Assembly: GCF_030696665.1 (NCBI RefSeq)
Contig: NZ_JAUYRV010000022.1
Coordinates: 2,976-66,975 of the forward strand
Reading direction: 5' to 3'
Length of the DNA: 64,000 nt
Source of the DNA: Novosphingobium sp.
GTDB lineage: Bacteria > Pseudomonadota > Alphaproteobacteria > Sphingomonadales > Sphingomonadaceae
Positions 23,469 to 61,151 of the stretch are shown one piece after another; position 1 is the first letter of the stretch, and each line of letters opens with the position of its first letter. The notes below the pieces were generated by a model that had not been told where the DNA came from, searched no databases, and saw only the letters and a program-made list of their open reading frames with translations. The translations under genes and the position numbers were made by a program.

Positions 23469-23864
23469 ATGGCAATGACCGACCCCTTGGGTGATATGCT
23501 CACCCGCATCCGCAACGGCCAGCAGGCAAAGAAGGACACCGTCCTTTCGCCCGCGTCCAAGTTGCGTGCGCACGTGCTCGAAGTCCTTCAGCGTGAAGGT
23601 TACATTCGTGGCTTCTCGGAGGACACCACCGGTGCCCACCCGCAGCTGCGCATCGAGCTCAAGTATTTCGAAGGACAGCCTGCGATCAAGCATGTTGCCC
23701 GTGTCTCCAAGCCTGGCCGCCGCGTCTATTCGGGTTCCAAGGAACTTCCGGTAATCCGCAACGGCCTTGGCATCACCATCGTCTCGACGCCACGCGGCGT
23801 GCTTTCGGATGCCGAAGCGCGCGCTGCCAACGTCGGTGGCGAAGTGCTTGCGGAGGTGTTCTGA
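23469..23864 (+). CDS. rpsH: 30S ribosomal protein S8
   Basis: [12 protein letters not shown]. Confidence 0.99.
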
Positions 23865-24397
23865 TGAGCCGCATCGGCAAGAAGCCGGTGGCGATCCCCG
23901 GTGGCGTCACTGCGAACATCGCTGACGGCGTGCTGACCGTAAAGGGGCCCAAGGGCACCCTGACGCTCACGCTCCGTGACGAAATCAGCTACATCGTCGA
24001 TGGCGATACCATCCTCGTAAAGCCGGCCAATGACACCAAGTCGGCCCGCGCTTTCTGGGGCATGCAGCGCACCCTCGTCGACAACCTCGTGACCGGCGTT
24101 ACGCAAGGCTACACCAAGGTCCTTGAGATCACCGGTGTTGGTTACCGCGCGAATTCGCAGGGCAAGAACCTGAAGCTGCAGCTTGGCTACAGCCATGACG
24201 TCGATTTTTCGATCCCGGAAGGCATCGAGATCAAGACCCCGGACAACACCACGGTGGAAATCTCGGGTATCGACAAGCAGAAGGTTGGCCAGGTCGCCGC
24301 CGAGATCCGTCGCTGGCGCAAGCCCGAGCCTTACAAGGGCAAGGGCATCAAGTACCGCGGCGAGTTTATCTTCCGCAAGGAAGGGAAGAAGAAGTAA
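23864..24397 (+). CDS. rplF: 50S ribosomal protein L6
   Basis: [18 protein letters not shown]. Confidence 0.99.
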
Positions 24398-57522: not shown

Positions 57523-57524
57523 CC

Positions 57525-57660
57525 CATCCTCCCCTGCACGGGGAGGGGGACCGTCCGCAGGACGGTGGAGGGGGTTGTCGGAGCCCGCTGCGGCTGATGG
57601 AGAACCCCCTCCACCACGCTTCGCGCGGTCCCCCTCCCCGTCCCCGTCCCGGGGAGGATG
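57525..57660. mobile_element. MITE/CIR-like 136-bp inverted-repeat element between accD and folC
   Basis: Terminal CATCCTCCCC/GGGGAGGATG; internal paired blocks GGGAGGGGGACC and GGTGGAGGGGGTT; no ORF. Confidence 0.75.
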
Positions 57661-57664
57661 AGGG

Positions 57665-58516
57665 TCACGCCGCCGCCTTCGCCGCCATCAGATAATCGAT
57701 CACCTGCGCCAGCGTCACTTTCATGTCGCGCCGGTGCGTTACCATGTCGATCATGCCATGCGCATAGAGATACTCCGCGCGCTGGAAACCTTCGGGCAGC
57801 TTTTCGCGGATCGTGTCCTGGATCACGCGCTGTCCGGCAAAGCCGATGAGTGCGCCGGGTTCGGCAATCTGCACATCGCCCAGCATCGCATAGCTGGCGG
57901 TAACGCCGCCGGTGGTGGGATCGGTCAGCACGACGATATAGGGCAGTCCCGCAGCGCGCAGACGCGATATCGCCACGGTCGAGCGCGGCATTTGCATCAG
58001 GCTGAGGATGCCTTCCTGCATACGCGCGCCACCGGCTGCGGTCACGGCCACGTAAGGGCACTTTTCACGCACTGCACGCTCGCACCCGGCGACGAAAGCA
58101 TTGCCCACGGCCATGCCCATCGATCCGCCCATGAAGGCGAATTCCTGCACGCCGACAACGGCTTTCTGCCCCTCGATCTTGCCGAAGGCGTTGGTCAGCG
58201 CATCGGCGTGGGGATTGGCGGCGCGGGCGGCTTTCAGTCGGTCGACATACTTCTTGCTGTCGCGGAACTTGAGCGGGTCTTCCTTGACCTTGGGCGCGGG
58301 CAGCAACTCGTACCCTGCGTCCAGCAACTGGTTGAGCCGCGCGTCTGCGCCAATGCGCCCGTGATGTTCGCAATGCGGGCAGACCGATAGGTTGTCTTCA
58401 TAGTCCTTCACGAACAGCATTTCGCTGCACGAAGGGCACTTGATCCACAGGTTGTCCGGCGTGTCCCGCTTCGGCGTGAAGGGGAGGGCGTTGCGGACCT
58501 TGTTCAGCCAGCTCAT
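57665..58516 (-). CDS. accD: Acetyl-CoA carboxylase carboxyltransferase beta
   Basis: CPSC...[19 protein letters not shown]. Confidence 0.98.
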
Positions 58517-59313
58517 GCGATTTCCTTCCGGGCAGAGTGGACGGCAGCGGCCAGCGCTGCGGTAAGTTCCCGCACCGGGCCAGCGGCATCCGCGCCATGT
58601 TGTGCTACCAGATCGACCAGCGCCGAACCGACGACGACGCCGTCTGCGACCTTGGCGATTGCAGCGGCCTGTTCGGGCGTGCGCACACCAAAGCCTACCG
58701 CAACGGGGATGGTGGCCGAAGCCTTGATCCGCGCCACCGCCTCGTCAATCGAGGCTTGCGCAGCCTGCTGCATCCCGGTGATGCCCGCGACCGACACGTA
58801 GTAGAGAAAGCCGGACGATCCATCGAGCACAGCCGGAAGCCGCGCCGCATCGGTGGTCGGCGTGGCGAGGCGGATCAGGGAGACGTCAGCACCACGCAGC
58901 GCGGGGCCAAGCTCGGGGTCTTCCTCGGGCGGAATGTCCACGCAGATCACGCCATCGACGCCCGCCTTGACGCATTCGGCGGCGAACCAGTCGGCCCCGC
59001 GAATGGTCATCGGATTGGCATAGCCCATCAGCACCAACGGTACTTCCGGGTGGCGCGCGCGGAATTCGGTGGCGATGCGCAGGATGTCGGAAGTCTTGGT
59101 ACCAGCGCCGAGCGAACGCAGGTTCGCCAGCTGGATCGCCGGACCATCGGCCATCGGATCGGTGAACGGCATTCCCAGTTCGATCACGTCCGCGCCGCCT
59201 TCGACGAGTGCGTCGAGGATGGATGCGGTGGCGTCAGGCGTCGGATCGCCACCGGTGACGAAGGTCACGAGGGCGGGGCGGCCCTTGGCGAAGGCGTTGG
59301 AGAGGCGGGTCAT
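58513..59313 (-). CDS. trpA: Tryptophan synthase alpha chain
   Basis: [24 protein letters not shown]. Confidence 0.98.
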
Positions 59314-59567
59314 ATTTTCGGCTTCCACCATATGATCGGGAGTAAAATCCAACTTACAAGAAACATGGTCACTCCAAGGAGTCCCAAGGTGACTTCAAGA
59401 GCCGACGGGAAAAGGATTTCTGACGGGAGAAGCGAGTGGGGAGAAATCGTCTCGAATTCATATCCCCGTTCAGCGCGATTAACCCGCATCCGGTTTTCTA
59501 GAAACACAGTAATCAAGCCGGACAGCTGAAGGCAGAAAACCAGCAAGAGCCGCCCGTCTCTTTTCAA
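59310..59567 (-). CDS. Small two-TM hypothetical membrane protein coupled between trpB and trpA
   Basis: TTG start overlaps trpB stop (TTGA); TGA stop overlaps trpA ATG (ATGA); two hydrophobic segments. Confidence 0.6.
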
Positions 59568-60778
59568 AGCGAGACCCCCAGATGCTCCGCGACCGAGAAG
59601 ATGTCCTTGTCCCCCCGTCCGCACAGGTTGGCAAGGATGATCTGGTCCTTGTCCATCGTCGGCGCGAGCTTCTGGACGGCTGCAATTGCGTGGGCAGGCT
59701 CCAGCGCGGGGATGATGCCTTCGGTGCGGCAGAGCAGCTGGAATGCGCTCAGCGCTTCCTTGTCGGTTACCGAGGTATAGTCCACGCGGCCGATTTCCTT
59801 GAGCCATGAATGCTCAGGCCCGATGCCGGGATAATCGAGCCCTGCGCTGATCGAGTGGCCTTCGGTGATCTGGCCGTCCTCGTCCTGCAGCAGATAGGTC
59901 TTGTTGCCGTGGAGAATGCCGGGGCGTCCGCCGGCGAGCGAGGCGGCATGTTCCTTGTCCAGCCCATGCCCTGCCGCTTCGACGCCGAGCATCTTGACGC
60001 TGGGATCATCGAGGAACGGATGGAACAGGCCGATGGCATTCGATCCGCCACCGATGGCCGCAACCAGCACATCGGGCAGACGGCCAGTGCGGTCCATCAT
60101 CTGGACGCGCGCTTCCTTGCCGATCACGCTCTGGAAATCGCGGACGAGTTCCGGATAGGGATGCGGACCGGCGGCGGTGCCGATGATGTAGAACGTGTTG
60201 TGGACGTTCGCCACCCAATCGCGCAGCGCCTCGTTCATCGCGTCCTTGAGCGTGCCCGCGCCTGCCGTTACCGGCACCACTTCGGCGCCCAGCAGCTTCA
60301 TGCGGAACACGTTGGGCGCCTGACGCGCCACGTCGGTCGCGCCCATGAAGATCACGCAAGGAAGGCCGAAGCGCGCGCAGACGGTGGCCGTGGCAACACC
60401 ATGCTGACCAGCGCCGGTCTCCGCGATGATCCGCGTCTTGCCCATGCGCATGGCGAGCAGAATCTGCCCGACGCAGTTGTTGATCTTGTGCGCGCCGGTG
60501 TGGTTCAGCTCGTCGCGCTTGAACCAGATTTGTGCGCCGCCTAATTCCTCGGTGATGCGGGGCGCGAAGTACAGCGGGCTGGGGCGGCCCACGTAATGTT
60601 CCAGCAGATCGTCGAACTCTGCCTGAAATGCCGGGTCGGCCTTGGCCTTGCGGTATTCGGCTTCCAGATCGAGGATCAGCGGCATCAGCGTTTCGGCAAC
60701 ATACCGCCCGCCGAACTGGCCGAAGTGGCCACGTTCATCGGGCAGGGTGCGGAAGCTGTTGGGAGTTGGCGCGTTCAT
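59564..60778 (-). CDS. trpB: Tryptophan synthase beta chain
   Basis: [27 protein letters not shown]. Confidence 0.99.
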
Positions 60779-61151
60779 GCGCCCGCGCTTGGCAGAGCCG
60801 CGCGGGAAAGTCCAGATTTGCAAAGCCCGGACCTTTGGGGCAGGGGGCTTTTGCTGCATTGCAGAAATCTGCACGTGTCGTTCATCTTTCAGCAATCTGC
60901 TGCAGTCTAGTGCGGCTTTGCAACGTCGTGAAGGCGGCTCCGAAAGGGGTCGCCTTCTTGCGTTGTAGTAATGATCAAATAAATCTCAAAAGTAACTATC
61001 ATTGTTAGTGTGGCTAATGTTGCAGACTTGTCACATTTTATCCGGGTTTTGCTTTTGAAGTGATTTTCGTCATTGTCACCCTGCCGGACCGACCCTACCT
61101 GACCCCCGCCACCTTCGGAAAGAAGGGGCCAAAAAGTCAGGAGTACAAAAT

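Follow-up and report, generated by a model that had tools for sequence, protein, structure and literature searches.

In Escherichia coli, trpB and trpA overlap by four nucleotides (nt), and ribosomes that terminate on the first gene reinitiate on the second (Das and Yanofsky 1989, as cited in PMC10666635); among the bacterial cases of termination-reinitiation cited in that work, trpBA comes first. Reporter work has found that termination-reinitiation drops steeply within 14-38 nt of untranslated distance and fails once about 20-40 nt are exceeded (PMC10666635). According to a passage of Kagan et al. (2008, PMC2395257), which cites Xie et al. (2003), some Burkholderia and Flavobacterium species and one Sargasso Sea contig have genes without an assigned function between trpB and trpA. 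Here we analysed the trpB/trpA junction of a Novosphingobium sp. (contig NZ_JAUYRV010000022.1) in a stretch of 64,000 nt, called the window, whose positions are used throughout. An open reading frame (ORF) of 85 codons fills the gap between the two genes. It is probably a real, unannotated gene for a hairpin protein, a divergent member of its family, in a slot of the Sphingomonadales at which ribosomes would be relayed from trpB through the ORF to trpA.

An 85-codon frame between trpB and trpA

The minus strand of the window carries trpF, trpB, the gap, trpA, accD and folC, in this order. From the trpB stop to the trpA start the gap measures exactly 250 nt, and a preliminary description of the window had claimed that a single frame fills it. 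We found the frame open over 85 codons (59310-59567, minus strand), from a TTG at 59565-59567 to a TGA at 59310-59312, with a small two-helix membrane protein as the predicted product. At the upstream junction the CTT TGA end of trpB overlaps the TTG, giving TTGA (59564-59567); at the downstream junction the TGA overlaps the trpA ATG, giving ATGA (59310-59313). The 4-nt NTGA stop/start overlap on one strand that marks coupled gene pairs was thus present at both ends of the ORF. In the ORF list, as noted before, the frame is displayed merely as the tail of a shadow ORF of 165 amino acids (59310-59807).

The coupled frame has no stop codon in the gap, compared with 5, 4, 1, 4 and 3 in the other five frames, and 3.3% of shuffled versions of the gap leave it open. 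The 3.83-Mb genome has a single copy of the gap, whose GC content is 0.47-0.55, compared with about 0.65 in the flanks. By codon position, GC content is 0.54/0.38/0.57 in the ORF, 0.65/0.43/0.79 in trpB and 0.67/0.51/0.80 in trpA, in agreement with the A/T-richer codons reported earlier (0.57 at the third position, or GC3, compared with 0.79-0.80 in the flanking genes).

For homologues, 376 Novosphingobium genomes were subjected to a translated search with the ORF. One clear homologue (locus L138) and four weak matches were detected; among the weak ones, only G003 was in the trp slot, that is, between trpB and trpA. L138 lies there as well, with 87 codons, the same overlaps and 36% identity to the 85-residue ORF. 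Global alignment of the ORF, evaluated against shuffled sequences, gave z values of 11.9 for L138, 8.8 for L031 and 4.3 for L058 (N. taihuense). The similarity was specific to the frame: z was 11.6 for the coupled frame and at most 6.2 for the other five. Identity at the three codon positions was 0.39/0.63/0.33, with position 2 the best conserved; because this alignment was protein-guided, the fairer test is the control by frame. Over the seven codons compared at each terminus, the ORF and L138 had three identical codons, eight synonymous changes and three non-synonymous changes, and both termini kept common residues, K-R-(D/E)-G-R-L and W-W-K-P-K-I. We take the synonymous terminal changes as the strongest evidence from comparison that the frame was read as protein.

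In the genus, the coupled frame was fully open in 22 of the 37 Novosphingobium gaps of at least 130 nt, with 2.7 expected from shuffles. On these comparisons the frame is a coding gene and not a chance frame, and we infer that the ORF is translated in this strain. A pattern scan of metagenomes for near-identical alleles, meant for a within-species ratio of non-synonymous to synonymous change (dN/dS), gave 57 loci, of which only four are family members in trp slots and none is close to the ORF. A word search of 5.8 billion clusters with the ORF gave no match.

The two hydrophobic stretches named in the preliminary description were confirmed by hydropathy. The first (residues 5-24; 59496-59555, minus strand) follows the basic N-terminus MKRDGR, and the second (residues 51-82; 59322-59417, minus strand) runs into the C-terminal motif WWKPKI, whose codons TGGTGGAAG occupy 59313-59330 on the same strand and which family members have in common through synonymous codon changes. 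AlphaFold2, given an alignment of the family described below, returned a helical hairpin (mean predicted local distance difference test score 82) with helices at residues 3-39 and 56-81, one for each segment. Two transmembrane helices with basic termini, a feature of the family, were predicted in this ORF by hydropathy and AlphaFold2. Searches of the ORF against Pfam, NCBIfam, PADLOC, PHROGs and PDB sequences detected nothing specific, nor did a Foldseek search of its model against the PDB (E>3).

Among the neighbouring genes, trpA (tryptophan synthase alpha) lies at 58513-59313 on the minus strand; its ATG (59311-59313) aligns with residue 1 of TrpA in relatives. The maximal ORF of trpB (tryptophan synthase beta) lies at 59564-60895 on the minus strand, with its TGA stop at 59564-59566 and 70-98% identity to the TrpB C-termini of relatives. 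As listed, this ORF opens at a TTG 39 codons 5′ of a likely true start, the ATG at 60778 (MNAPTPNSF...). The upstream extension (60778-60895) is probably not translated.

The trpB/trpA junction in Sphingomonadales

A DNA search of 60 genomes of the same genus gave matches in two halves, one to trpB and one to trpA, at a varying distance from each other. The nearest named relative was N. taihuense, with TrpA 96-97% identical. We then mapped the two gene borders, trpB stop and trpA start, in 126 loci from Sphingomonadales. No spacer was present in 41 of them, mostly with the classic -4 overlap (GTGA, ATGA or TTGA). In 51, an ORF runs from an NTG overlapping the trpB stop to an end no more than about 30 nt from the trpA start; these include Cys-rich DUF6980 proteins and short repeat-element frames. 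The remaining 34 junctions had other fillings: DUF559 endonuclease cassettes, a cupin, what we presume to be a DUF1640-like protein, and inserts that are degenerate or stacked, in some of which pieces of the 5′ end of trpA and the 3′ end of trpB are duplicated. The comparison of spacers across relatives for frame and overlap, proposed in the preliminary description as a check, thus supported the claim, with doubly coupled ORFs in 51 of the 126 loci and open frames in 22 of the 37 gaps of the genus.

Other measures of the spacers agreed. By a hand count, 26 of 38 spacers in the genus have a length of 1 modulo 3, which a doubly overlapping ORF needs. In 68 of the 83 occupied gaps of at least 100 nt, a sense ORF covered at least 90% of the gap and ended within about 30 nt of the trpA start; in 53 the stop was the TGA of an NTGA overlap. 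In a sample of other alphaproteobacterial families the coordinates put the gaps at roughly 0-100 nt (hand calculation for about 45 genomes among the matches listed), and the single genome of the window's own family in that sample had a gap of about 530 nt.

The slot ORFs form more than 30 sequence clusters. For coupled slot ORFs of at least 50 residues, exactly two hydrophobic segments were found in 41 of 48, compared with 10.6 expected by shuffling of residues. The density of Lys and Arg was 0.26 before segment 1, 0.09 in the loop and 0.27 after segment 2, which fits the positive-inside rule for a hairpin with both termini inside. The 85-residue product is likewise predicted to be a helical hairpin of the inner membrane, with cytoplasmic N- and C-termini. 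In subfamily A (N. resinovorum group), GC3 was host-like (0.82-0.89) and dN/dS was 0.07-0.26 among close pairs. These patterns indicate that most slot ORFs encode membrane hairpins, with selection at the protein level on at least some of them. The hairpin slot ORFs had no match in Pfam or NCBIfam. When ten slot ORFs were looked up, five were on record as "hypothetical protein"; the 85-residue ORF and four others were off record.

A profile of four slot ORFs detected 28 representatives at E<=1e-3 among 1.84 billion cluster representatives. The consensus of this family (about 95 residues) consists of M-x-R-D-x-R-L-L, a first transmembrane helix (TM1) with QAxI, a loop with NW..F and GP..CFxxCxPxLPFxxGW, a second helix (TM2) and WWKPK. 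R3, D4, R6 and P83 were nearly invariant in 27 family sequences. The 85-residue ORF has both terminal motifs of the family, MKRDGRLL and WWKPKI. With a leave-one-out profile it was the top match among 54,590 six-frame ORFs of the genome (E 1.9e-4), and with database members only it was matched at E 1.1e-3; the match is weak and, therefore, we regard the ORF as a divergent member.

Five family genes are free-standing (L142, L145, L146, L147 and L148). A site resembling a Shine-Dalgarno (SD) sequence was visible upstream of three of them (L142, L145 and L146), and their neighbours were unrelated, for example riboflavin synthase, glutamate dehydrogenase and NDUFA12. No conserved partner gene was found for them, and the small genes upstream were unrelated to each other. 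Members in the trp slot with 4-nt overlaps on both sides were L143, L144, L150 and four metagenome contigs. Searches of the other family members against Pfam, NCBIfam, PADLOC, PHROG and PDB gave scattered single-member matches at E>1e-3. A literature search found no description of the two-helix family or of a doubly coupled cargo slot between trpB and trpA, and the family defined here has no entry in Pfam, NCBIfam or PDB.

For the history of the slot, a tree was built by a quick search from 840 nt of flanking trpB and trpA sequence with 125 tips. Presence or absence of an insert changed at least 30 times on it, a rough count for a quick tree of this length with 41 of its 121 inner branches unsupported. 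About ten well-supported sister pairs had different fillings (for example L065/L068, L036/L074, L070/L071 and L041/L046). The four closest relatives of the window are in four states: L058 carries a homologue that has diverged, L011 another hairpin ORF and L012 a DUF559 cassette, and L013/L014 lack an insert.

Synonymous divergence (dS) in the flanks between the window and N. taihuense was about 0.42, at which neutral DNA was calculated to be about 68% identical and easily alignable. The gap DNA of the two reached a z of 2.3 over shuffles, no better than against an unrelated filling. The 85-residue ORF was nearer to L138, whose flanks are more distant, than to L058. In our reading, either recombination within the conserved gene ends has replaced the filling or the filling has diverged very fast; both fit the data alike.

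Close relatives retain the ancestral 4-nt trpB/trpA overlap, and relative to it the gap is an insertion. The comparison across Sphingomonadales indicates that the junction is a hypervariable cargo slot, which has been occupied, emptied and refilled. The preliminary description had offered two readings, a foreign gene inserted with coupling preserved and a translated spacer that relays ribosomes to trpA, and the comparative evidence favours both together. As for the foreign gene, insertion at the ancestral overlap and the free-standing genes of the family agree with it; a unique and recent import does not hold.

Several fillings deserve separate mention. DUF559 genes (Vsr-like endonuclease, motif EIDGDTHD) were found in the slots of L012, L037, L042, L054, L056, L068 and L079, flanked by GC-rich inverted repeats that translate as PLPTLSPEGERVGRG, and degenerate copies in L078, L083, L090 and L103. 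This layout resembles that of a free-standing homing endonuclease between conserved genes. The window's own genome has a DUF559 homologue flanked by the same repeats outside the trp slot (C17:182406-182744). In three lineages (L052, L067 and L074) the slot has Cys-rich acidic proteins of about 70-84 amino acids (Pfam DUF6980, E 1e-25). The gaps of L030 (G064; 895 nt) and L025 (G023; 559 nt) contain stacked cargo in which parts of the 5′ end of trpA and the 3′ end of trpB are duplicated, and these duplications look like scars of recombination at the gene ends. In L015 (G004), whose 232-nt gap lacks a full-length coupled ORF, the match to TrpA breaks into two frames near residue 61-63, possibly through a frameshift or an assembly error.

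The proposed relay and rival explanations

In the 3′ end of trpB, a conserved SD-like CTGGGGGT (59574-59581, minus strand) lies 7 nt 5′ of the NTG that overlaps the trpB stop. Its strength, measured as duplex energy with the anti-SD sequence, was -9.1 kcal/mol in this window, and the mean before this NTG was -8.0 kcal/mol in the 51 occupied junctions. The same site precedes trpA in 36 empty junctions, with a mean of -7.4 kcal/mol. Before trpA the mean was -4.3 kcal/mol in occupied junctions and the value in this window was -4.9 kcal/mol, compared with a mean of -2.65 kcal/mol for control 18-mers. A value of -6 kcal/mol was reached before trpA in 24% of occupied junctions but in 89% of empty ones. 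The only SD-like site before trpA here is a weak one formed by TGGTGGAAG, the codons for WWKPKI. The insert has thus taken over the SD-like CTGGGGGT and the NTG that serve trpA in empty junctions.

These signals suggest the following relay. Transcription of the operon would run through the gap, and ribosomes ending trpB at its TGA would restart at the overlapping TTG with the help of CTGGGGGT. They would translate the small protein, terminate at the TGA within ATGA and, on leaving the insert, restart on trpA with its weak SD-like site; an untranslated gap would starve the cell of TrpA. The relay is proposed because reinitiation drops so steeply with distance. It would imply that the insert inherits the expression of trpBA and must stay open for TrpA synthesis, and it would explain why nearly every filling, palindromic repeats included, is an open sense frame up to trpA. 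Our inference is that an insertion persists only where ribosomes are passed on to trpA, and that trpA would depend on translation of the ORF here.

Several observations weigh against the hairpin gene and its relay. trpB ends in CTT TGA, which supplies an NTG, and trpA opens with ATG ACC, so that a TGA is always present in that frame; the overlaps claimed in the preliminary description exist, but the neighbouring genes dictate part of both. By themselves the overlaps are thus weaker evidence than at first sight, and the open frame and its conservation carry the weight. dS was saturated against every homologue and, therefore, no dN/dS is available for the 85-residue ORF itself. The ORF was absent from a collection of 15 billion proteins and hence had been called by no gene caller. 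Its GC3 is far below that of host genes, which fits weak constraint and, equally, foreign origin. The loop motifs and the Cys pair of the family are missing from it (the loop motifs NW..F and GP..CFxxCxPxLPFxxGW are likewise absent from the slot members L138, P0063 and L186), TM1 is about 9 residues shorter, and the match to canonical members with the Cys motif alone has an E of 0.021. The original function of the protein may thus have decayed. The weak SD-like GGTGGAAG of trpA may allow some independent initiation, and the roughness of the turnover count has been noted above.

In one rival explanation, which we consider rather unlikely, the ORF is decaying cargo that serves only as a relay: the frame is translated but the peptide has lost any function of its own, and selection is only for an open frame, a tolerable product (inserted in the membrane or rapidly degraded) and both junctions, as TrpA needs the delivered ribosomes. 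The loss of the loop motifs and Cys pair, while the first and last seven or so codons were kept, would be expected under such decay, as would the GC3 of 0.57 and the absence of a strong SD before trpA in occupied junctions. Non-genic elements resembling repetitive extragenic palindromes (REP) in the slots of L127, L130 and L032, and in the gap between accD and folC of this operon, are also open, doubly overlapping frames, and the coverage of 68 of 83 occupied gaps by sense ORFs points the same way. The two-segment pattern with basic termini in 41 of 48 slot ORFs is, however, well above what composition gives; position-2 conservation and frame-specific similarity span the body of the ORF; and other slot families are under clear purifying selection (subfamily A, as above). 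We give hardly any credence to a frame open by chance in a non-coding spacer, with trpA using a ribosome-binding site of its own. It would agree with the silence of gene callers, the AT-rich, intergenic-like composition and the partly forced overlaps, and a single gap would be open by chance in 3.3% of cases. It leaves unexplained the homologues at the same site, the frame-specific similarity, the synonymous changes at conserved residues, the family members elsewhere in public data and the excess of open gaps (22 of 37 against 2.7), and the gap offers no RNA structure, Rfam match, promoter or terminator in place of a gene.

A function specific to tryptophan could take the form of WW codons that sense charged tRNA-Trp for TrpA, or of a membrane protein that modulates transport of tryptophan or indole. 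Two adjacent Trp codons do lie 12-17 nt 5′ of the trpA ATG, four codons before the restart; Trp makes up 3.0% of residues in slot ORFs, compared with 1.5% in host proteins; and in Streptomyces the trpCXBA operon includes a small ORF that takes part in tryptophan biosynthesis (TrpM, PMC5036795). Nevertheless, free-standing members keep WWKPK outside any trp context, making it a feature of the family and not of the slot, and only 3 of 52 slot ORFs contain WW. The enrichment extends to Phe, as expected of small membrane proteins, and the gap has no attenuator hairpins. The same slot takes unrelated cargo (DUF559, DUF6980, cupin, REP), an insert is missing from a third of the order, and free-standing homologues have unrelated neighbourhoods. 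We therefore consider a tryptophan-specific role very unlikely and take the 85-residue protein to be an accessory small membrane protein under weak constraint.

Candidates of other kinds were rejected. An RNA element in the gap was ruled out, as there was no Rfam match beyond a chance one of 11 bits, the RNA fold of the gap was no more stable than that of shuffles (z +0.73), and neither a promoter-like site on either strand of 58900-60000 nor a terminator on either strand of the gap was found. A type I toxin-like peptide found no support, as there was no promoter-like site for an antisense or overlapping small RNA on either strand of 58900-60000 and no match to an RNA family. A trp leader peptide or attenuator was rejected in spite of the WW, given the missing terminator, the fold z, the lack of an Rfam match and the position of the ORF between the last two genes. 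A repeat or mobile element was ruled out by the single copy of the gap and the lack of meaningful internal repeats. As for a gene on the opposite strand, the sole plus-strand ORF of more than 40 amino acids that enters the gap (58537-59529) is the usual high-GC shadow of trpA.

Other filled junctions, significance and comparison with known systems

The gap between accD and folC (142 nt; 57523-57664, minus strand) is a second filled junction of the same operon. Its sequence is a palindromic, GC-rich repeat of which the genome has many partial copies, and it too reads as an open frame: 49 codons that begin with a GTG overlapping the accD stop and end in a TGA overlapping the TTG start of folC. 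Elsewhere in this genome, two-helix ORFs of 57 and 74 amino acids, with stop/start overlaps with long ORFs on both sides, were found at C47 (+) 23704-23877 and C38 (+) 138343-138567 (strand-relative). Doubly coupled small membrane ORFs are rare in this genome, but the one in the trp operon is not the sole case.

A wider reading, possible but in our view less likely than not, is that the junction is a single-gene slot with a translational filter, in which only insertions open in sense from the trpB stop to the trpA start would persist. Cargo there, be it a captured small membrane-protein gene, an endonuclease cassette or a palindromic repeat, would be obligatorily translated at housekeeping level, making the slot a natural site of forced expression; small membrane proteins would be captured, diversified, degraded and perhaps born in it; and the 85-residue ORF would be a half-decayed example. 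With the hairpin gene, a textbook operon gains an unannotated small membrane protein gene. A testable rule is that a tightly coupled gene pair may tolerate insertions only as ribosome-passing ORFs, which would link translational coupling with the evolution of accessory and new genes. For annotators, trpB-trpA gaps of 130-900 nt in sphingomonads are a place for missed genes, and the natural fillings are a ready series for measuring the effects of cargo length and sequence on reinitiation.

Small membrane proteins encoded in operons, such as KdpF, CydX, AcrZ and MgtS, act on a defined partner encoded nearby or co-regulated. The 85-residue ORF resembles them in having fewer than 100 residues and one or two transmembrane helices, and such proteins are often missed by annotation; unlike them it has no evident partner, and tryptophan synthase is cytoplasmic. 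It shares with membrane proteins that emerge de novo from T-rich stretches (Vakirlis et al. 2020, PMC7005711) a T-rich sense strand, weak codon adaptation and a product prone to transmembrane helices. Those de novo cases differ from it, as it has homologues, free-standing genes included.

TrpM (trpX, SCO2038) of Streptomyces coelicolor (PMC5036795) is likewise a small ORF within a tryptophan operon with its biochemistry unassigned. By description its place, between trpC and trpB, is a different one, and many unrelated families fill the slot studied here. To our knowledge, TrpM is not a membrane hairpin.

The Burkholderia, Flavobacterium and Sargasso Sea cases are alike in having non-trp genes at the same junction; the passage that mentions them names no small membrane ORFs or double coupling, and the comparison is one of descriptions. 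Rapid turnover of unrelated accessory genes, as in hotspots of horizontal gene transfer between core genes (Oliveira et al. 2017, PMC5635113), was found in the slot as well, with no integrase in it. In contrast to those hotspots, the slot lies inside an operon at an overlapping stop and start, usually holds one gene of 40-170 codons, and has nearly all its cargo co-oriented and reaching the downstream start.

The junctions of the ORF resemble the coupled 4-nt overlaps of Huber et al. (2019, PMC6728339; 2023, PMC10666635) in their NTGA, their single strand and the subunits of a heteromeric enzyme on either side. Empty junctions of Sphingomonadales have the classic -4 overlap, as in E. coli trpB/trpA. 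Unlike in E. coli, two overlaps, with a coupling that we read from sequence, are chained here through an inserted ORF, and the cargo uses the initiation region that was formerly that of trpA.

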